Positions 5,101-49,067 of a DNA stretch of 64,000 bases are shown piece after piece. A program made the translations under genes and the position numbers. Location of the stretch: positions 32,001 through 96,000 of the forward strand of contig OZ243972.1 in NCBI GenBank assembly GCA_965214705.1. Direction: 5' to 3'. The notes under the pieces were generated by a model. It made no database searches and had not been told where the DNA came from. It worked only from the letters and a program-made list of their open reading frames with translations. Source of the stretch: Alphaproteobacteria bacterium (GTDB lineage Bacteria; Pseudomonadota; Alphaproteobacteria; UBA828). Numbering within the stretch: position 1 is the stretch's first letter; every line of letters starts with the position of its first letter.

Positions 5101-6128
5101 TTGCGCGGCAAGAAGCGCAGATCGAGCGCGGCGGCATCGGGAACGGGGCAAGCCAGCCGCGGAGTGCGGCGCGCGTCGGTCCCGGCGAACGGCAGGGAGA
5201 GTCGGCAGAGGACCGCGCAGCAGCTGAAGCGCAGGTGTCGCAGACACAAGCTGCGGCGAACGACAATGCGCTCGTGCGCATCGCCCGTGAGATCCGCCAT
5301 GCGGTCAACGGATGGCGCCACGGCGCAGCCGTCGACGCCTTCGCGGCGGAGAGCACCGAGGTCATGGCGGCGTGGGACGAGCTTCGCCGGCGCGCACGCG
5401 CCGAGGGCGAGGCTGTGGCGCTCAGCCCGGCTTTCCGCGAGACCCTCGACCGCCACCGCGCGCTGATGAAGCAGGCCGCGTCGTTCCGCTCCCGGCCGCA
5501 GATGTTCGAACGCCTGCTCGCCGAGCGCGCCGGCATCGGCCAGGGAGAGATCGCGGAACTCCGCAATCAGCACGCGCGCGCTGGCAGCTACCTCCGCTCC
5601 GTGACGGCCAGGGCCGCTCACCGGGCGCGGCAGGACGCGAAGCGCCAGGACGCGAAGCGCCAAGACGCACCGCGCGAAGAAGCGGGGATCGTCGAGGCCG
5701 TCGCAGCCGAGGTTGTCGCAGCCGGGATCGCCGCCCCTGCCGCCGGGCCCGCTCCCGAAGAGTCCCTGCCGCCTCGTACCCCGGAAGCTGTCGCGCCCGG
5801 CCCGGAGCGCGATGCCCCGCCCGACTGGCGCACGCTCTACAGGGAGCTGCAACGCGACTGGAACGATCTCGTCGCCCGCGCCGAGGAGCCCGACCTGCCC
5901 CTGCCGCTGATGGAGGGCTACGACGCGCTGATTGGCCGCGTCCGCATACTCGCCGATAATCCCGACCTGTCCGGGCGCGCACGCAGCGTGATCGACGGGC
6001 TCCTCGAGTACCATGATGACGAGACCGCGGCGCGCGAGATCGCCGAGGGCTATCTGGCGGCGGCCGAACGGCAAGTCGAGGCGTATAAGGCCCTTGAACA
6101 GCATGCCCGCCAACGCGGCGTTCCCATT
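2187..6128 (+). CDS. MOBF (TrwC/TraI-family) conjugative relaxase-helicase, N-terminal 1314 codons; C-terminus cut off by an insertion
   Basis: N-terminal YY motifs, DMTFSADKSVS, H-x(9)-HTH (FQHGTSRENDPQLHTH), Walker A GAAGSGKTT, VVDEAGM, AQGITVD. As interrupted the ORF stops at 6161 inside the inserted element. Confidence 0.9.
5631..5668 (+). repeat. 15-bp tandem repeat (about 2.5 copies) within the relaxase
   Basis: CAGGACGCGAAGCGC x2 plus CAAGACGC, encoding QDAKR repeats. Confidence 0.8.
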
Positions 6129-6357
6129 GAACGAAGCCGCTACGCGGAGTTAGCGGCGTAGAGTTCATTCATTTCCGAGGCGTCGCGGGTGCCGTTTGTT
6201 CTGTGCGTTCGCTTCCCGGTTGCGTCAGTGGCGCTCCGCCCGTCGGGTGGCGGATCCCCAGCAGCCTCCCGATCACCAGTGGTTAGCATCGACCCCTGCG
6301 ACGGACCGTCGCCGGATCGGTCCGGCGGCGCGCCGTCGCGATCCAGGGAGATCGATA

Positions 6358-7236
6358 ATGACCGGGACCGCGTGCGACACGAACACCGTCACCCCTCTTC
6401 GCCAGCGCATGGAGGAGCAGCTCCGCATCGCCAATCTGGCCGCGAGCACGTCCAAGGCCTACATCTGCGAGATCAAGAACCTGGCCAGGTACTACGACGC
6501 CTCGCCGGACGAGCTCGACGCCGAGCAGGTGCGCCAGTGGTACCTGGGGCGGATCGACAAGGGGCTCAGTCCGGGCACGACCAACGTCTCCTTCGCCGCG
6601 CTGAACTTCCTCTACATCGACACACTCGGCTGGCCTGACCATGTCGCCGGCCTGCGCTCCCGCAAGAAGCCCGGCAAGCTGCCGCGCTACATGTCGGAGC
6701 AGGAGGTCGAGCACCTCATCCTTGCGACACCCGACCTCCGCCACCGTGCTGCCATTGTCACCGGCTATGGCGGCGGGCTCCGCATCTCCGAGACCTTGGC
6801 CATCAAGGTCGGCGACATCCTGTCGGAGAAGAAGCTGCTGCACATCCCCTCCGGCAAAGGCGGCACCGAGAGAATGGCACCGTTGCCGGACATCGTCATC
6901 CACTACTTGCGCGTCTACTACAGGAACATCTGGCCGCGTCCGACGAACTGGCTCTTCTACGGCGTCTCGCTCGACAGGCCCATCGCAACGGAGACCTTGC
7001 AGGCCGCCTTCAGGAGGGCGCGCGACATTGCCGAGCTCGACCGCAGCTACACCTTCCATTGCCTGCGCCATTCGGCGGCGACCCATCTCCTCGAGCGCGG
7101 CGGCGATATCGAGGTGATCCGGGACATGCTCGGCCATCGAAGCGCGAACACGACCCGTCACTACGCCCGCGTCACCGGCAAGATGTTCGAGGGCCTCGAC
7201 CACCCGATCTCAGGCTTCGCAGCGTTGCGCAACTGA
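6358..7236 (+). CDS. Tyrosine recombinase/integrase (N-terminal SAM-like domain plus catalytic domain)
   Basis: GLRISE (R), GKGG (K), HCLRH (HxxR), LGH and TRHY (Y) catalytic residues; AGGGAG RBS. Confidence 0.92.
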   Translation: MTGTACDTNTVTPLRQRMEEQLRIANLAASTSKAYICEIKNLARYYDASPDELDAEQVRQWYLGRIDKGLSPGTTNVSFAALNFLYIDTLGWPDHVAGLRSRKKPGKLPRYMSEQEVEHLILATPDLRHRAAIVTGYGGGLRISETLAIKVGDILSEKKLLHIPSGKGGTERMAPLPDIVIHYLRVYYRNIWPRPTNWLFYGVSLDRPIATETLQAAFRRARDIAELDRSYTFHCLRHSAATHLLERGGDIEVIRDMLGHRSANTTRHYARVTGKMFEGLDHPISGFAALRN

Positions 7237-7539
7237 CGGCGCGTGGAGGCCGAACGCGCGGGCGTGGCGGAGATCTTCCGCCGCGCCGGCGCCGCTTTCC
7301 GTGAGCGCCACAAAGGGCGCATCGACGCCGCCCGGCTCAAGGTCATGGGCGCCATCGAGGCGTGCCGCACCGCCGTGCTCGGCGGCCACATGTACGCCTG
7401 CGAGGGCTGCGGGCGCGAGCATCCGCTCTTCAGATACCATGAGCACGGTGGCACCGAATCGATTCTGGCGGTTAGACAAGCTCGGAGAGAAGGCCAGCAC
7501 CTTCTCTCCGAGCGGAATCGTCAACAACGGAGTGGACGG

Positions 7540-8736
7540 ATGTCGGATGGTCCAGACACGACCGCGCTGACAGGCGCAAGTAGTAGCACGATTTATGTCG
7601 CGGTGGAGATCAGCCTCAAATCGTGGATCGTTGGCGTGCATTGCCCGGATGCCTCGGGTGGCAGCATCAGCATCCACACACTGGCTGCTGCCGACACGGC
7701 GGGACTGTTGGATCTCGTCGGGTCGGTGCGGGAACGGGTGGCGAGGGAGCTCGGCGCCCGTCCTCGGGTGATGCTGACCTACGAGGCGGGCTACGAGGGG
7801 TTCTGGCTTGCCCGCGATATCGAGCGCCGTGACGCGGAGATCGATATCTTCATGAACGATCCGGCGAGCCTGCGGGTGAACCGGCGCGCCAAGAAGAAAA
7901 AGACCGACCGTATCGACGCGAGGAGGATGGTTCGGGCTCTGAAGGCATGGGACCAAGGCGATTCGGAGGCCATGTCCTGGGTGCGCGTGCCCGATGTGGA
8001 CCAGGAGGATGCCAAGCGCCTGCTGCGCGAGAGGGACACGCTGATCAGCGAGCGTACCCGCGTCAACAACCGGATCAAAGGGCTCTTGCAGTTGCACGGC
8101 ATCTTCGATCTGGCGCCGCGCAAGCCGGACTTCCTCGAACGCCTCGCGACCGCGCGGACGGGCTATGGGGCGCCGTTGCCGCCGCGTGCGCGGGCAGAGA
8201 TTGAGAGGGCGGTGGGGATGCTTCGCCTGGTTGAGGAGCATATCGAGATGATCGAGGCCGAGAAGAGGGCCCTGCTGAAGGCTGGCCGGAAAGCCCAGGA
8301 CGCGACCAATCGTGACGGGACGGCGATGATCGCGGCGCTTACGCGCATCCATGGCATCGGCCTCAATGACGCCACACTGCTGGCTGGCGAGGTGTTCTAT
8401 CGGGACTTCCGCAATCGCCGGGAGTTGGGCAGCTGGGCCGGGTTGACGTCGGTGCCGTGGGCGAGCGGAGATGTCGACCACGATCTTGGCATCAGCAAGG
8501 CCGGCCCCTCGCATGTCAGGAAGCACATGATCCAGATGGCTTGGCGCTGGCTGAAGCTGCAACCGGAAAGCGCGATCACGAAGTGGTTCCACGCCTACGT
8601 CGCCAGGGATGCCGGTGGCGGGAGGGACCGGCGAGCGAGGAAGCGGGCGATCGTGGGGGTCGCGCGCAAGCTGCTGATCGCGCTGTGGCGCTATGCCACC
8701 CAAGGACTGGTGCCTGAGGGCGCCATCGTCTCCTGA
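7540..8736 (+). CDS. IS110-family DEDD transposase/recombinase
   Basis: YVAVEIS, YEAG and KTDRIDA RuvC-like motifs; C-terminal GIG...AGL...PWASG...ISKAG...ARKL domain. Confidence 0.92.
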   Translation: MSDGPDTTALTGASSSTIYVAVEISLKSWIVGVHCPDASGGSISIHTLAAADTAGLLDLVGSVRERVARELGARPRVMLTYEAGYEGFWLARDIERRDAEIDIFMNDPASLRVNRRAKKKKTDRIDARRMVRALKAWDQGDSEAMSWVRVPDVDQEDAKRLLRERDTLISERTRVNNRIKGLLQLHGIFDLAPRKPDFLERLATARTGYGAPLPPRARAEIERAVGMLRLVEEHIEMIEAEKRALLKAGRKAQDATNRDGTAMIAALTRIHGIGLNDATLLAGEVFYRDFRNRRELGSWAGLTSVPWASGDVDHDLGISKAGPSHVRKHMIQMAWRWLKLQPESAITKWFHAYVARDAGGGRDRRARKRAIVGVARKLLIALWRYATQGLVPEGAIVS

Positions 8737-9082
8737 GGGCACCGGCCGAACGAACGGGAAAATACAGGAGGTTCCGACGTGGTCGGACGCGGCCGCGGAG
8801 GATGCCGGGCAAGGCGTGTGACCGGGCAAGAGTTGGGTCGCCGCTTGGCACCGTTCTACAGATGGGTCCCGCCTCCCGGAACGTCACCACCGCTTGGATG
8901 CGGTATTGGGGTCACGGAGCCGGCAAGCGCCGGAGTTCCGAACCGGATAAGAGCTGAGCAGCGTGGCGGATCGCTGCGTGGAAACGACGTTCTGCCTGGA
9001 CATCGGCCGCGGATTCGAGTGGAGAGATTGCGAATGCCATTGACGTAGATGAAGCCGGGCCTTGCGGAGAGAGCTCATAAGA
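8737..9082 (+). ncRNA. Putative bridge RNA / seekRNA region of the IS1111-type element (exact RNA ends unknown)
   Basis: Non-coding 3' end. Contains GGCAAGAGTTG (8825-8835) and CCGTTCTACA (8851-8860) matching the two target strands, and GGTAT (8902-8906) and ATAAGAG (8947-8953) matching the circle junction; each pair is separated by a stem. Confidence 0.7.
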
Positions 9083-10382
9083 ACTCCTGCCGTAACCGCC
9101 ACTGCCCCACCTGCCAGGGTCTCGCCGCCAACCTCTGGAGCGAGGAGCGCGCCGGGGACATCCTGCCGGTGCCCTACTTCCATGTGGTCTTCACCCTGCC
9201 CAAGGAGGTTGCCGCCATTGCCTTCTGCAACCGCAGGGTGGTGTTCGACATCCTCTTCCGGGCCGTCGCCGAGACCCTGCGCACCATCGCCGCCGATCCC
9301 CGCCACGGCGGCATGCGCATCGGCGGCACCGCGGTCCTCCATACCTGGGATCAGAAGCTCCGCTTCCACCCGCACCTGCACGTGGTCGTGCCCAACGCGG
9401 GCTTCGACGTAGACAGTGGCGAGTGGAAGACGGGGAGCACCACCTTCCTCGCCCCCGTCAAGGTCCTCGGCAGCCTGTTCCGCCGCCTCTTCCTCAAGGA
9501 GCTCGCCCGCGCCCACGGCCGGGGGGACCTGGAGTTCCACGGCACCCTCGCCCACCTCGCCAATCCCGGCGAGTTCCACGCCACGCTTGCCGCCGCCCGG
9601 GCCAGGGACTGGGTGGTCTACGCCAAGCGGCCCTTCCGCGGGCCTGAGCAGGTCTTCCGGTACCTCTCGCACTACACGCACAGGATCGCCATCTCCGACA
9701 GCCGCATCGTCTCCTTCGACGGCGAGACGGTCTCCTTCCGCCACCGAAAGCCCAAGGCGCCGGGGCAGAGAAAGCCGCGCTACGGCATCGCCACCGTGAG
9801 CGCCGACGAGTTCATCCGCCGCTTCCTGAGGCACGTCCTGCCGGACGGCATGCACCGCATTCGCTACTTCGGCATCCTCGCCAACGGCTGCCGCGCCAGC
9901 ACGCTGGAGAGAGCACGCCAGGCTCTCGGCGCCCTCGGCTGCGCCGCCCCCGAGGGAAGCGTGGACGGCGCTCGGGCCGAGCCCGACGAAGAGCCCGAGA
10001 TCGGCACCGCGCCCGTGGCCTGCCCCCACTGCGGCGGCGTCATGCGCCTCGTCCGCGAAATCCGCCGCCGCCATGAGCCCCGCTCGACGCGCGGCCCGCC
10101 GGCGCTGCCGCCGACCCACAGGGGGAAACCGTGAGACGCCCGCTCGCTTCGGCCCCGCGCAACGGCGCCAAAGCGCCGACGCACGACCGAACCTGTCTCC
10201 GCTTGAGCCGGGCTGACAGCCCTCGGCTCACACCCCGCTCAGTCCTCGCAGCGTGCGCCCGCATGCCTGCCGAAAGACCGGCGCGAGCGTCGATTTTATG
10301 CGCAACTCTGCTGCCGGTGGATGCCGCCTGACGCTGACATCAGCGCACTTTCCACATAGCTCAACTTCGCCTCTCGTGGCCC

Positions 10383-10438
10383 GCGGCTTCGTTCAAAAGG
10401 GTTGGGCAGGCTCTCGAGAGAGAGCCTGCCCAACCCTT
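10383..10438 (+). repeat. Sub-terminal 14-bp inverted repeat plus perfect 19-bp hairpin at the element 3' end
   Basis: GCGGCTTCGTTCAA (10383-10396) is the reverse complement of TTGAACGAAGCCGC (6127-6140). AAGGGTTGGGCAGGCTCTC-GAGA-GAGAGCCTGCCCAACCCTT spans 10397-10438. Confidence 0.95.
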
Positions 10439-10444
10439 AACCTT

Positions 10445-10876
10445 TCCCGTCTTGATGCCTGGCCCCGATGGCGCGAAACGGCCGGGCTGCTCGCGGACAC
10501 CGGCAAGGCCGTCCTCTCCAACGTCGAGAGGTACGGCGTATATCTCGACGCGATCGCCGCCGGAAAGCCGCGCGCTCGCTTGACGGTCGACCAACTGCGC
10601 AACCGGCTCGACGACAATCGCACCGTCGCAAGAAAGCCGAATGTTCCGCAGAACCGGCAAGAGCCCACGTCGAAGCAGGAGCAGGGCTTCGCGCACAGGC
10701 TGGTCGATGACCGCAAGCCTCGAAATCAACCGCGGCCGGCGGTCGAAGGAGAACGGCAGGGCTTCGCCCACATCCTCGACGATCCCGAGAAACTCCGCGA
10801 ACTGCGCAAGAAGGCCGAGGAGCGCGACCGCAAGCTCGGCAGGCACATGCGAAGGAGTCGGGGGCTGAGTATCTGA
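10445..10876 (+). pseudogene. Detached C-terminal 143 codons of the relaxase
   Basis: In frame with 2187-6128 once the element is removed (..GVPI|SRLDAW..); ends in RRSRGLSI, a basic T4SS-signal-like tail. Confidence 0.85.
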
Positions 10877-45053: not shown

Positions 45054-46084
45054 TCAAGCCCCCATCGCCTCGCTGTGCTTCCTTGCCCCGCCGCACAGTT
45101 GCGCGGCGGGTGGCACAGTCCGGAGCCTATCATCCGCATACCGGCGCGCCCTGCCAATAGGATATGTTGCACGCGGATGCAGACCGAGCGGACGGAGAGA
45201 ACGCATGAAGGTGGTGATCACGGGGGGCCTGGGCTTTCTCGGGCTGAGACTGGCGCGGACGCTGCTCGACAGGGGAACGCTGACCGGCGCCTCGGGCGAG
45301 CAGGAGTGGATCGACGAGATGATCTTCTTCGATGCCGTCGTGCCCGAGCAACCACCCGCCGGTCTCGACGACGAGCGGGTCTCGCTGGTCGCCGGCGATG
45401 TCTCTGACGGCGATACCGTGCGCGCCCTCATCGCGGGCGACTCCCTCTCGGTCTTCCACTTCGCCTCGGTGGTCAGCGCCGGCGCCGAGCAGGACTTCGA
45501 CCTCGCGCTCGCCGTCAACCTCACCGGCGGCCTCAACGTCCTCGACGCTTGCCGCGCCGCACCGGGCCTGCCGCGCCTCGTCTTCACCAGCAGCATCGCG
45601 GTCTACGGCGGCAGCGCGCTCCCTGAAACCGTCTCCGATATGACCAAGATCACGCCGCAGGGCACCTACGGCGTGACCAAGGTCATCAACGAGCACCTGG
45701 TGGCCGACTATACCCGCAAGGGCTATCTGGATGGCCGCGGTGGCAGGCCGCCCACCGTGATCGTGCGCCCTGGCAAGGTTAAGGGTTGGGCAGGCTCTCT
45801 CTCGAGAGCCTGCCCAACCCTTTTGAACGAAGCCGCGGGCCACGAGAGGCGAAGTTGAGCTATGTGGAAAGTGCGCTGATGTCAGCGTCAGGCGGCATCC
45901 ACCGGCAGCAGAGTTGCGCATAAAATCGACGCTCGCGCCGGTCTTTCGGCAGGCATGCGGGCGCACGCTGCGAGGACTGAGCGGGGTGTGAGCCGAGGGC
46001 TGTCAGCCCGGCTCAAGCGGAGACAGGTTCGGTCGTGCGTCGGCGCTTTGGCGCCGTTGCGCGGGGCCGAAGCGAGCGGGCGTC

Positions 46085-47326
46085 TCACGGTTTCCCCCTG
46101 TGGGTCGGCGGCAGCGCCGGCGGGCCGCGCGTCGAGCGGGGCTCATGGCGGCGGCGGATTTCGCGGACGAGGCGCATGACGCCGCCGCAGTGGGGGCAGG
46201 CCACGGGCGCGGTGCCGATCTCGGGCTCTTCGTCGGGCTCGGCCCGAGCGCCGTCCACGCTTCCCTCGGGGGCGGCGCAGCCGAGGGCGCCGAGAGCCTG
46301 GCGTGCTCTCTCCAGCGTGCTGGCGCGGCAGCCGTTGGCGAGGATGCCGAAGTAGCGAATGCGGTGCATGCCGTCCGGCAGGACGTGCCTCAGGAAGCGG
46401 CGGATGAACTCGTCGGCGCTCACGGTGGCGATGCCGTAGCGCGGCTTTCTCTGCCCCGGCGCCTTGGGCTTTCGGTGGCGGAAGGAGACCGTCTCGCCGT
46501 CGAAGGAGACGATGCGGCTGTCGGAGATGGCGATCCTGTGCGTGTAGTGCGAGAGGTACCGGAAGACCTGCTCAGGCCCGCGGAAGGGCCGCTTGGCGTA
46601 GACCACCCAGTCCCTGGCCCGGGCGGCGGCAAGCGTGGCGTGGAACTCGCCGGGATTGGCGAGGTGGGCGACGGTGCCGTGGAACTCCAGGTCCCCCCGG
46701 CCGTGGGCGCGGGCGAGCTCCTCGAGGAAGAGGCGGCGGAACAGGCTGCCGAGGACCTTGACGGGGGCGAGGAAGGTGGTGCTCCCCGTCTTCCACTCGC
46801 CACTGTCTACGTCGAAGCCCGCGTTGGGCACGACCACGTGCAGGTGCGGGTGGAAGCGGAGCTTCTGATCCCAGGTATGGAGGACCGCGGTGCCGCCGAT
46901 GCGCATGCCGCCGTGGCGGGGATCGGCGGCGATGGTGCGCAGGGTCTCGGCGACGGCCCGGAAGAGGATGTCGAACACCACCCTGCGGTTGCAGAAGGCA
47001 ATGGCGGCAACCTCCTTGGGCAGGGTGAAGACCACATGGAAGTAGGGCACCGGCAGGATGTCCCCGGCGCGCTCCTCGCTCCAGAGGTTGGCGGCGAGAC
47101 CCTGGCAGGTGGGGCAGTGGCGGTTGCGGCAGGAGTTGAAGAGCGGATGCTCGCGCCCGCAGCCCTCGCAGGCGTACATGTGGCCGCCGAGCACGGCGGT
47201 GCGGCACGCCTCGATGGCGCCCATGACCTTGAGCCGGGCGGCGTCGATGCGCCCTTTGTGGCGCTCACGGAAAGCGGCGCCGGCGCGGCGGAAGATCTCC
47301 GCCACGCCCGCGCGTTCGGCCTCCAC
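46085..47326 (-). CDS. IS91-family Y2 (HUH) transposase with N-terminal Zn-binding domain, intact
   Basis: CEGC, NSCRNRHCPTC, YFHVVFTLP, HTW, HPHLH, YLSHY, C-terminal CPHC. Confidence 0.95.
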   Translation of the reverse strand: MEAERAGVAEIFRRAGAAFRERHKGRIDAARLKVMGAIEACRTAVLGGHMYACEGCGREHPLFNSCRNRHCPTCQGLAANLWSEERAGDILPVPYFHVVFTLPKEVAAIAFCNRRVVFDILFRAVAETLRTIAADPRHGGMRIGGTAVLHTWDQKLRFHPHLHVVVPNAGFDVDSGEWKTGSTTFLAPVKVLGSLFRRLFLEELARAHGRGDLEFHGTVAHLANPGEFHATLAAARARDWVVYAKRPFRGPEQVFRYLSHYTHRIAISDSRIVSFDGETVSFRHRKPKAPGQRKPRYGIATVSADEFIRRFLRHVLPDGMHRIRYFGILANGCRASTLERARQALGALGCAAPEGSVDGARAEPDEEPEIGTAPVACPHCGGVMRLVREIRRRHEPRSTRGPPALPPTHRGKP

Positions 47327-47332
47327 GCGCCG

Positions 47333-48211
47333 TCAGTTGCGCAACGCTGCGAAGCCTGAGATCGGGTGGTCGAGGCCCTCGAACATCTTGCCGGTGACGC
47401 GGGCGTAGTGACGGGTCGTGTTCGCGCTTCGATGGCCGAGCATGTCCCGGATCACCTCGATATCGCCGCCGCGCTCGAGGAGATGGGTCGCCGCCGAATG
47501 GCGCAGGCAATGGAAGGTGTAGCTGCGGTCGAGCTCGGCAATGTCGCGCGCCCTCCTGAAGGCGGCCTGCAAGGTCTCCGTTGCGATGGGCCTGTCGAGC
47601 GAGACGCCGTAGAAGAGCCAGTTCGTCGGACGCGGCCAGATGTTCCTGTAGTAGACGCGCAAGTAGTGGATGACGATGTCCGGCAACGGTGCCATTCTCT
47701 CGGTGCCGCCTTTGCCGGAGGGGATGTGCAGCAGCTTCTTCTCCGACAGGATGTCGCCGACCTTGATGGCCAAGGTCTCGGAGATGCGGAGCCCGCCGCC
47801 ATAGCCGGTGACAATGGCAGCACGGTGGCGGAGGTCGGGTGTCGCAAGGATGAGGTGCTCGACCTCCTGCTCCGACATGTAGCGCGGCAGCTTGCCGGGC
47901 TTCTTGCGGGAGCGCAGGCCGGCGACATGGTCAGGCCAGCCGAGTGTGTCGATGTAGAGGAAGTTCAGCGCGGCGAAGGAGACGTTGGTCGTGCCCGGAC
48001 TGAGCCCCTTGTCGATCCGCCCCAGGTACCACTGGCGCACCTGCTCGGCGTCGAGCTCGTCCGGCGAGGCGTCGTAGTACCTGGCCAGGTTCTTGATCTC
48101 GCAGATGTAGGCCTTGGACGTGCTCGCGGCCAGATTGGCGATGCGGAGCTGCTCCTCCATGCGCTGGCGAAGAGGGGTGACGGTGTTCGTGTCGCACGCG
48201 GTCCCGGTCAT
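47333..48211 (-). CDS. Tyrosine recombinase/integrase, same protein as 6358-7236
   Basis: R-K-HxxR-H-Y catalytic residues present. Confidence 0.93.
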   Translation of the reverse strand: MTGTACDTNTVTPLRQRMEEQLRIANLAASTSKAYICEIKNLARYYDASPDELDAEQVRQWYLGRIDKGLSPGTTNVSFAALNFLYIDTLGWPDHVAGLRSRKKPGKLPRYMSEQEVEHLILATPDLRHRAAIVTGYGGGLRISETLAIKVGDILSEKKLLHIPSGKGGTERMAPLPDIVIHYLRVYYRNIWPRPTNWLFYGVSLDRPIATETLQAAFRRARDIAELDRSYTFHCLRHSAATHLLERGGDIEVIRDMLGHRSANTTRHYARVTGKMFEGLDHPISGFAALRN

Positions 48212-49067
48212 TATCGATCTCCCTGGATCGCGACGGCGCGCCGCCGGACCGATCCGGCGACGGTCCGTCGCAGGGGTCGATGCTAACCACTGGTGATCGG
48301 GAGGCTGCTGGGGATCCGCCACCCGACGGGCGGAGCGCCACTGACGCAACCGGGAAGCGAACGCACAGAACAAACGGCACCCGCGACGCCTCGGAAATGA
48401 ATGAACTCTACGCCGCTAACTCCGCGTAGCGGCTTCGTTCAAGCCCAACAAGGCGGCCTCCGGCTTCGCCAGCGGGCTCTTCCGCGAGCCGCTGGCCGGC
48501 ATCGACCACGAGCTCCCAGTGAGTCGGGACACGCGCATCGTCCTCGGCGGCTACCGCACGATCGTCGATAGTCTGGTCGCCCTCCACGAGGTGCCGAGCG
48601 CGGACCTCGGCGACGACCGCACCATCAACCTGCCCTCCTTCTCGGCGACGGCAGGCGAGATGGCGGCGGCGCTGGAGCGCGTGGGCGTGGGCCGCAGGCT
48701 AGGCGCCATCATCGACGCGCCCGATGCGGCGATCCAAAGGCTGGTTGGCTCCTGGCCGGCCTACGCGAAGGCCGACCGCGCGGCCGGCCTCGGCCTGCCC
48801 CAGAACCCGCCGCTCGACGAGGTGGTGCGCCAGTACATCGAGGACTACGTCGACAACTGACCCGCGCCGCACGCTGGCGTCTGGACCCGGCCCTGCCGTC
48901 CGTCTCGCACGGTGTCTGCGCCACACAGTGAGACGGACACACAATTTTTCTAGCGAGATGCGCCGGGATTAAGCGGGATAACTGCGATGTCGTGCGCGCG
49001 CGTCTCACCCGCACCTGAGGGTCGCGGGCGCGGAAAAGTAGCACAACCGACGATCCCACCTCCCCCT

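Follow-up and report, generated by a model that had tools for sequence, protein, structure and literature searches.

The closest described systems are the IS1111-type elements, for which the comparison set was ISEc11, ISXne4, ISKpn4, ISPst6, and ISPa11 (Siddiquee et al. 2024, PMC11187229), and IS621 (Durrant et al. 2024, PMC11208160; Hiraizumi et al. 2024, PMC11208158). IS1111-type elements have a DEDD-type recombinase of 330 to 350 aa and a long 3' noncoding region. Their seekRNA lies 3' of the gene, with the segment complementary to the top strand located 5' of the segment complementary to the bottom strand, and insertion is oriented and without duplication (PMC11187229). The subterminal inverted repeats are 11 to 13 bp (PMC11187229) or 7 to 17 bp (PMC11208160) long, and the left end is extended by 7 (or 6) bp and the right end by 3 bp. 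IS621 uses a single RNA, encoded in the left end, with a target part and a donor part. The bottom strand is bound by its left guides and the top strand by its right guides, a further short stretch next to a guide matches the partner DNA, the core is CT, and the C-terminal domain of the recombinase carries a serine-glycine motif (PMC11208160, PMC11208158).

The window, a stretch of 64,000 nucleotides of an alphaproteobacterial genome, contains two near-identical 2.67-kb elements in inverted orientation, one with an insert (6127 to 10447) and one without (45772 to 48442). The matching arms are 6127 to 7432 with 47137 to 48442 and 9082 to 10447 with 45772 to 47137. Each element encodes one phage-integrase-type open reading frame (ORF) (PF00589) and one 413-aa IS91-family transposase (Zn_Tnp_IS91, 104 bits; Y2_Tnp, 184 bits; NF033538, 382 bits). 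The insert is an insertion sequence (IS). Its parts and the target site, read from the sequence, are as follows.

7433 to 9082, plus strand: whole IS, 1650 bp, absent from the other, near-identical host gene copy
7433 to 7444, plus strand: left end, with the extension GATACC (7433 to 7438) and the subterminal inverted repeat ATGAGC (7439 to 7444)
7540 to 8736, plus strand: recombinase gene, 398 aa plus stop, with Pfam, NCBIfam, and profile matches
9073 to 9082, plus strand: right end, with the subterminal repeat GCTCAT (9073 to 9078) and the extension AAGA
7426 to 7432, plus strand: left target half-site CTCTTCA, spanning codons L-F and base 1 of the N codon of the IS91-like transposase
9083 to 9091, plus strand: right target half-site ACTCCTGCC, the remainder of the N codon, the S and C codons, and base 1 of the R codon
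47128 to 47146, minus strand: uninterrupted target, CCGCTCTTCAACTCCTGCC in coding sense, in the second IS91-like copy, which encodes an intact 413-aa protein

The boundaries 7432 to 9081 are equally valid, as one A is common to the IS end and the target; the terminal extensions are AGATACC and AAG with these boundaries and GATACC and AAGA with 7433 to 9082. Comparison of empty and filled sites showed no target duplication beyond this one ambiguous A, and 19 of 21 copies in the genome (see below) use one sequence and one orientation, as in the IS110 family. In IS91-family (Y2) transposase genes, these 16 bp correspond to (L/F)(Y/F)NSC of the Zn_Tnp_IS91 domain. The IS enters at the FNSC codons, and each insertion therefore splits the transposase gene of another transposon. 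The targets of the IS1111-type elements, in contrast, are REP sequences, attC sites, and a short linear site (PMC11187229).

The recombinase matched the N-terminal RuvC-like DEDD domain of PF01548 (33.0 bits; cut-off, 29), the C-terminal domain of PF02371 (Transposase_20, 45.8 bits), and the NCBIfam model NF033542, IS110 family RNA-guided transposase (174 bits; cut-off, 140). A search of the PDB with the single recombinase sequence gave no match, and only a profile of 16 relatives reached ISCro4 (9t56; E value, 2.5e-9) and IS621 (8wt6; E value, 3.3e-8). The profile alignment ran over the C-terminal domain with the serine-glycine motif, as in IS621, and placed GLTP.PWASG of the family opposite GLTPRRYESG of ISCro4. 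Residues E23, E82, D123, D126, S309, and G310 were invariant in the 16 relatives. By conservation, E23, E82, D123, and D126 are likely the catalytic tetrad, with E replacing the first D, unlike in IS621.

The IS thus belongs to the IS110 family, as initially annotated, and the 346 nt of noncoding DNA downstream of the recombinase gene (versus 107 nt upstream) contain the guide region described below. Membership in the IS1111 subgroup in the strict sense, which had also been proposed, is uncertain. The guides agree with it in position and order, and so do the terminal extensions, whereas the 6-bp repeats and the 398-aa protein do not: the repeats ATGAGC and GCTCAT are perfect over 6 bp in the window IS and 8 bp long in its relatives (TATGAGGC and GCCTCATA), and the recombinases of the relatives have 386 to 410 aa. 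The relatives keep the left end as GATCCTATGAGG or GATCCTATGGGG. Like the IS1111-type elements, the window IS combines a DEDD-type recombinase with a long 3' noncoding region.

The host ORF is in frame with the recombinase gene (7243 to 8736). Such read-through was found in copies located at IS91 and IstB sites, where the left end is 107 nt from the ATG, but not in copies located at DDE sites, where it is 108 nt. Two of the three reading frames through the left end of the IS are open anyway, and a designed fusion was rejected as a conserved feature. A sigma-70-like promoter was not found inside the IS. Several relatives have a TTGAC-like box, seen by eye, about 15 to 18 nt from the right end, which is a candidate junction promoter. 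No circle junction or tandem copy was present in the assembly, as expected for a transient circle.

The 7.9-Mb assembly (3 contigs) contained 21 full-length or split copies of the IS; 14 copies besides that in the window were 99.9 to 100% identical to it, 13 IS copies were 100% identical, and variants were also present. Nineteen of the 21 copies shared one orientation and, to the base, one insertion point, in the F-N-S-C codons of an IS91-family transposase gene. Both flanks were as in the window copy in 17 of these. One further copy had the IS91-like left flank and, on its right side, a partial tandem repeat of the IS itself; the other had the IS91-like right flank and only 11 IS91-like bases on the left, followed by a group II intron. 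Uninterrupted sites numbered 81, and 66 of them were identical over the 29 letters compared. The exact 16-mer target occurred 68 times in the genome. The IS has thus knocked out about one-fifth of the roughly 100 copies of the IS91-like transposon in this genome. Two of the sites may be excision scars (+GA and -3 bp variants).

Rolling-circle elements can be mobilized in trans. The pattern could stem from a single ancestral insertion, after which a composite of the IS91-like element and the IS was spread by intact copies without repeated targeting. The identity of the 13 IS copies, and of most host copies (about 99.9%), would fit such a history. However, the 15 occupied host copies with pairable halves fell into 12 haplotypes, and 7 of the 12 also included empty copies, an argument that gene conversion among the roughly 100 host-element copies could blur. 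A 100%-identical IS was also found in an IS91-like gene only 78 to 85% identical to the other host genes. In metagenomes, copies L065 and L066 (95% aa identity) occupied the same codon in two other IS91-like genes (...GREHPLY|NSCRNRHCP), with the flanks CCGCTCTACA and ACTCCTGCCGCAACCGG; these host genes differ from each other and from those of this genome. Finally, one IS variant was present at both an IS91 and an IstB site (v96 and v97, which do not differ in any column on which the tree was built). One founding insertion with later spread of the composite is therefore very unlikely, and repeated, independent insertion is preferred. The clustering at (Y/F)NSC codons that had been predicted for homologues was thus seen both in this genome and in L065 and L066. 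Three relatives were found in genome contigs and six in metagenome contigs, and plasmid sequences contained no close relative.

The target motif is conserved beyond this genome. Among 301 genomes sampled from the class, 17 contained PF14319. Of the 24 Zn_Tnp_IS91 motif matches parsed from 30 loci in other genomes, 21 read YNSC(R/K)NRHC; their DNA includes GCCTACAACTCTTGCC and CTCTACAACTCCTGCC, and the consensus form of the target is CTCTACAACTCTTGCC. The predicted guides of the IS spell TTCTAC-AACTCTTGCC, which is closer to this cross-genome YNSC consensus than to the local target CTCTTCAACTCCTGCC, from which they differ at three positions (one U:G wobble, one A.A, and one A.C). The ideal target TTCTACAACTCTTGCC, which had been derived from the guides and encodes YNSC, accordingly fits the transposase family better than the local FNSC does. 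This fit speaks for a conserved motif as the object of selection, and not for a single local repeat.

The predicted guide RNA was delimited on an alignment of the 3' regions of 14 relatives (48 to 95% protein identity). Its target-binding arm and the following hairpin are as follows.

8805 to 8879, plus strand: target-binding arm of the predicted guide RNA, from RNAalifold on the 14 relatives
8805 to 8808 with 8876 to 8879, 8812 to 8814 with 8872 to 8874, and 8815 to 8823 with 8865 to 8871, plus strand: outer stems of the target arm
8825 to 8834, plus strand: predicted right target guide GGCAAGAGTT, pairing with the top strand of A+ACTCCTGCC at 9 of 10 positions
8836 to 8852, plus strand: inner hairpin GGTCGCC-GCTT-GGCACC, between both guides, with three conserved pairs
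8854 to 8860, plus strand: predicted left target guide TTCTACA, pairing with the bottom strand of CTCTTCA
8889 to 8904, plus strand: hairpin ACCGC-TTGGAT-GCGGT between the two arms of the RNA, with five conserved pairs

Two hypervariable segments stand amid invariant blocks in the alignment, one of 10 bases after (G/A)(A/G)CCG and one of 6 bases after CCG and before AGAT. They are placed by RNAalifold on opposite sides of one internal loop, which is closed by the outer stem 8815 to 8823/8865 to 8871 and the inner hairpin. These segments coincide with the matches reported in the initial annotation, which had assigned GGCAAGAGTTG (8825 to 8835) to the right half-site and CCGTTCTACA (8851 to 8860) to the left half-site, around the hairpin at 8836 to 8852 and with reference to the empty site at 47128 to 47146 (minus strand); all four strings were found at these positions. 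The two matches (10/11 and 8/10) far exceed chance. At least 10/11 on the right was reached by 142 of 20,000 dinucleotide-preserving shuffles of the 346-nt region, and none had in addition at least 8/10 on the left within 60 nt downstream.

The extent of the guides was narrower than first drawn. On the left, 8854 to 8860 was retained as the guide, and CCG at 8851 to 8853 is invariant scaffold in the 14 relatives. The left guide matches CTCTTCA with one U:G wobble and one mismatch. The CA by which the two matches were thought to overlap was reduced to the A, and to this clade only, since G8835, the base that would pair with the C, is invariant across the family. The half-sites overlap by this one A in the window IS, are adjacent without overlap in o53, and lack one A in v86; the register of the right guide also differs by one base between the window IS and o53. 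The data from the window IS, o53, and v86 conflict as to the exact crossover base and a two-base core. The window IS has no CT core as in IS621 and, in this clade, shares a single A at the crossover.

The scaffold comprised 22 pairs, with 99% of cells paired and compensatory changes in 6 pairs. One of these lies in the inner hairpin (C-G to U-A in 3 sequences) and one in the hairpin 8889 to 8904 (A-U in 4 sequences and C-G in 10). None of 500 shuffles matched the covariation score, and pairing fell to 36 to 57% when one strand was slid by 1 to 3 columns. Folded alone, 8805 to 8879 gave the same shape as the consensus at minimum energy, but the energy of the single sequence was unremarkable (z, -1.54 for 8805 to 8879 and -1.37 for 8766 to 8990; 12 and 20 of 200 shuffles as good, respectively). 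An Rfam scan of 7300 to 9300 found no family near its cut-off (best, Bcj14 with 27 bits versus 59). Four RNA-library runs of one study contained assembled contigs of a 92 to 93% relative (e.g., 8170 to 8999 and 8353 to 9086), which attest to presence only and do not bear on strand, ends, or transcription.

The target may instead be recognized by the protein, with the similarity between the noncoding region and the flanks being due to chance or to a relic of a captured target. The unremarkable single-sequence folding would be compatible with this explanation, as would the fact that the guide RNA is known from sequence alone. Against it, the two matches lie on opposite strands, in the published order, and inside a loop with covarying stems, and the shuffles did not reproduce them. 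The guides were also compared with the flanks of 13 distinct elements in a table compiled by hand. The guides matched their own flank at a mean of 12.2 of 16 positions and the flanks of other elements at 5.4 of 16 (12.7 and 7.4 of 16, respectively, with G:U allowed), and none of 20,000 permutations of guides versus flanks reached the observed total. Moreover, guides differ between elements whose proteins are still 88 to 95% identical, and the altered guides fit the sites that these elements occupy. Recognition by the protein is thus extremely unlikely, and the two segments are taken to be guides. Four of the 13 elements failed one half-site, on the right in o55d, o55c, and L047 (4 to 6 of 10) and on the left in o53c (1 of 6).

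Retargeting by rewriting of both segments, as between ISEc11 and ISXne4 among the IS1111-type elements (PMC11187229), was seen among the window IS, v86, and L021. In v86, an 88%-identical copy in the same genome, the guides AATAGGCGTT and TTCCATA replace GGCAAGAGTT and TTCTACA, and the element is inserted in an IstB gene (PF01695). An empty paralogue of this gene reads GTCCACA|ACGCCTATCG, which fits the guides at 9/10 and 5/6 positions with one wobble. L021, in a metagenome-assembled genome, has the guides ACCACCAGTT and TTCTATA and is located at GATCTACA|ACTGGTGGAG in a DDE_Tnp_1 gene. The covariation of guide and target that had been proposed as a check was thus found.

Other copies were located at sites that fit their guides at one half-site only. 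Variant v97, whose guides do not differ from those of the window copy, lies in antisense orientation within the Walker-A codons of an IstB gene, where the right half matches at 10 of 10 positions (AACTCTTGCC) and the left half poorly. L062 to L064 (93% aa identity) carry the IS91-type right guide (complement AACTCGTGCC) but are located at the DDE site, with a full match including a wobble on the left and 7/10 on the right. In the element tree, L062 groups with the IS91-located L065 and L066 (support, 98/97) and not with L021, indicating that the DDE site was entered twice, once by a lineage with an ill-fitting guide. This suggests, rather than proves, that retargeting starts with an off-target jump.

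All four target classes in the close clade (at least 88% aa identity) are transposition genes, namely, the IS91 transposase, IstB (twice), and DDE_Tnp_1. Targets were mixed among the relatives with 50 to 55% identity: o53a and o53b are inserted in another IS110-family gene, L038 occupies the end of an rve transposase gene, L022 lies between genes, in palindrome-rich DNA next to a peptidase gene, and six other flanks had no family match. An ISAs1-type gene was considered as the o55d target and dropped, as no Pfam match was obtained. The targeting of transposition genes is consistent in the close clade and is no rule for the wider family.

This targeting may be no specialization, and the IS may have no anti-transposon or regulatory role. 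An IS with a fixed target would be noticed often only if that target is present in many copies, and transposase genes would simply be the most frequent of the repeated, dispensable sequences. Besides the mixed targets of the 50 to 55% relatives, the targets of known relatives (REP sequences, attC sites, and Tn21 ends; PMC11187229) favor this explanation. The uniform target classes of the close clade and the fit of the guides to the cross-genome YNSC consensus above the local copy speak against it. On balance, it has an even chance of being right.

The RNA is also predicted to contain a donor part, 3' of the target arm, with the following features.

8902 to 8907, plus strand: tentative candidate for a right donor guide, GGTATT, the complement of GATACC at the left end
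8947 to 8953, plus strand: predicted left donor guide ATAAGAG, equal to the last six right-end bases plus the first left-end base, i.e., the circle junction

The donor six-mer equaled the right-end terminus in 16 of 17 elements, in the variants ATAAGA, ATAAAA, and ATATAA, and stands in the context CCGGATA(AGA/AAA/TAA)G. In the candidate right donor guide, GGTAT pairs with ATACC in the window IS and GGGAT with ATCC in the 50 to 55% clade; the candidate overlaps the hairpin 8889 to 8904, and L067 breaks the pattern. Directly after the left target guide, GAT (8861 to 8863) equals the first bases of the left end, within a conserved AGAT, and may act as a handshake-like guide, comparable to the extra short match in IS621. 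The predicted RNA would thus resemble bridge RNAs in having one part for the target and one for the donor, with the right donor guide as a candidate only. As in IS621, the left guide would pair with the bottom strand and the right guide with the top strand. Unlike in IS621, the RNA would lie in the right end and not in the left end, and the order of the guides is reversed, with the top-strand guide 5' of the bottom-strand guide as in the IS1111-type elements (PMC11208160, PMC11208158, and PMC11187229).

In the proposed mechanism, the recombinase (7540 to 8736) would be guided by an RNA from the 3' noncoding region, whose internal loop would present 8825 to 8834 to the top strand right of the insertion and 8854 to 8860 to the bottom strand left of it. 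The second part of the RNA (8947 to 8953, perhaps with 8902 to 8907) would pair with the joined ends of the excised circle, and the RNA would in this way bring the circle and the target together. The recombinase would then insert the IS between CTCTTCA and ACTCCTGCC, in one orientation and without target duplication. Production of the RNA and its binding by the recombinase are presumed, as is the circular intermediate, and the recombination chemistry would be that of ISEc11 and IS621 by analogy. Very probably, 7433 to 9082 is an active or very recently active IS110-family IS of IS1111-type layout that is RNA-guided to the IS91 site. The original interpretation of an RNA-guided IS aimed at conserved codons of a rolling-circle transposase thus appears largely right.

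The novelty of the system had been overstated, as RNA guidance, the 3' location of the RNA, and natural reprogramming were already published. The mechanism has been in print since 2024, and no new mechanism is revealed; the notable part is the target. No published IS110 or IS1111 element aimed at IS91 transposase codons was found in the article listings and passages searched, though a case may be listed among the supplementary targets of PMC11187229 or PMC11208160. A known IS110-family IS with a fixed target in another transposon likewise travels with that transposon and disables it. Its target is a noncoding terminal repeat, whereas that of the window IS consists of conserved transposase codons and is thus held constant by selection on the protein. 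A conserved, multicopy, horizontally travelling target likely offers many harmless landing sites in IS91-carrying hosts.

More broadly, these elements may form a clade of RNA-guided ISs that are parasitic on transposons, with guides tuned to codons held by selection (YNSC of IS91-type transposases, VHNAY of IstB, and IYNWW of the DDE transposase). They would change prey by an off-target jump followed by rewriting of the guides, and the window IS would act as a brake on the roughly 100-copy IS91-like element. Since such guides lie on codons kept by selection on transposition proteins, landing would be possible in any host that carries them. This broader reading is tentative, with distinctly less than an even chance of being correct.

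This genome and a few metagenomes together provide an unusually complete natural record of the choice and change of target by an RNA-guided recombinase, comprising about 100 target copies (19 of them filled), off-target insertions that match at one half-site, and sister copies with rewritten guides. The record offers natural data on mismatch tolerance in seekRNA and bridge RNA systems. For transposon ecology, it is a case in which one transposon limits another, and it shows that conserved coding sequence in other mobile elements can serve as the target of such an IS.

The IS91-like element and its accompanying integrase-type ORF are present in about 100 copies across the whole genome. The window carries two IS91-like copies (6127-10447 and 45772-48442), which are mutually inverted and lie about 35 kb apart.

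An uninterrupted 497-aa ORF in the window (7243-8736) opens with codons 1-63 of the split IS91-like transposase gene, crosses the left end of the IS and continues in frame into the recombinase gene. The same in-frame read-through was found in the IstB-located copy and in L065 and L066, two metagenome copies in IS91-like genes, and was absent from the copies located in the DDE_Tnp_1 gene. The continuity of the host ORF with the recombinase gene is probably due to chance. The acidic residue that comes first in the presumed catalytic set of the recombinase, E23 (7606-7608), was glutamate in all 16 aligned relatives, in the context VA(V/I)E(I/V/L)S; the family name implies an aspartate.

Two IS91-like sites that were otherwise uninterrupted were changed precisely at the IS insertion point. 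The first (G000:C1:3005640, minus strand, locus L061) had gained 2 bases (CTCTTCAGAACTCC), and its sequence looks as if the AGA at both junctions had recombined. In the second, a further copy, 3 bases were missing (CTCTTC---TCCTGCC). These two sites may be excision scars.

When window positions 7300-9200 were compared with RNA-library contigs (runs X1-X4, one study), a relative of the IS with 92-93% identity was detected at another site, with a right flank beginning ACTCTTGTTG. The empty IS91-like sites CTCTACAAC and CTCCATAAC were also present in contigs of these runs.

At G000:C1:1873054-1874867, a full IS is followed directly by a repeat of its own last 166 bases, starting at window-equivalent position 8917; the usual right flank comes after this repeat. 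In the relative L047, the 3' region shows a comparable tandem arrangement. Three IS copies are split in turn by a 2752-bp insert, at three different positions and with an 8-bp duplication, and this insert represents a third level of nesting.

IS copies split by the 2752-bp insert
G000:C2:520096-522847
G000:C3:687936-690687
G000:C3:1715128-1717879

A group II intron with two reverse-transcriptase-like ORFs, matching Rfam RF02005 at 172 bits, is present in four IS91-like copies of the genome.

Group II introns in IS91-like copies, all antisense to the IS91-like gene
G000:C1:791409-795525 (locus L098)
G000:C1:4025031-4037209
G000:C3:1609612-1615235
near G000:C3:2984178 (fourth copy)

The intron lies on the upstream side of the IS target in the IS91-like gene, at a distance of 11 bp, and one IS91-like copy contains both the intron and the IS, next to each other. 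The positions of these insertions thus indicate that two distinct RNA-guided mobile elements, the IS and the group II intron, home to a common 30 bp of the IS91-like gene.
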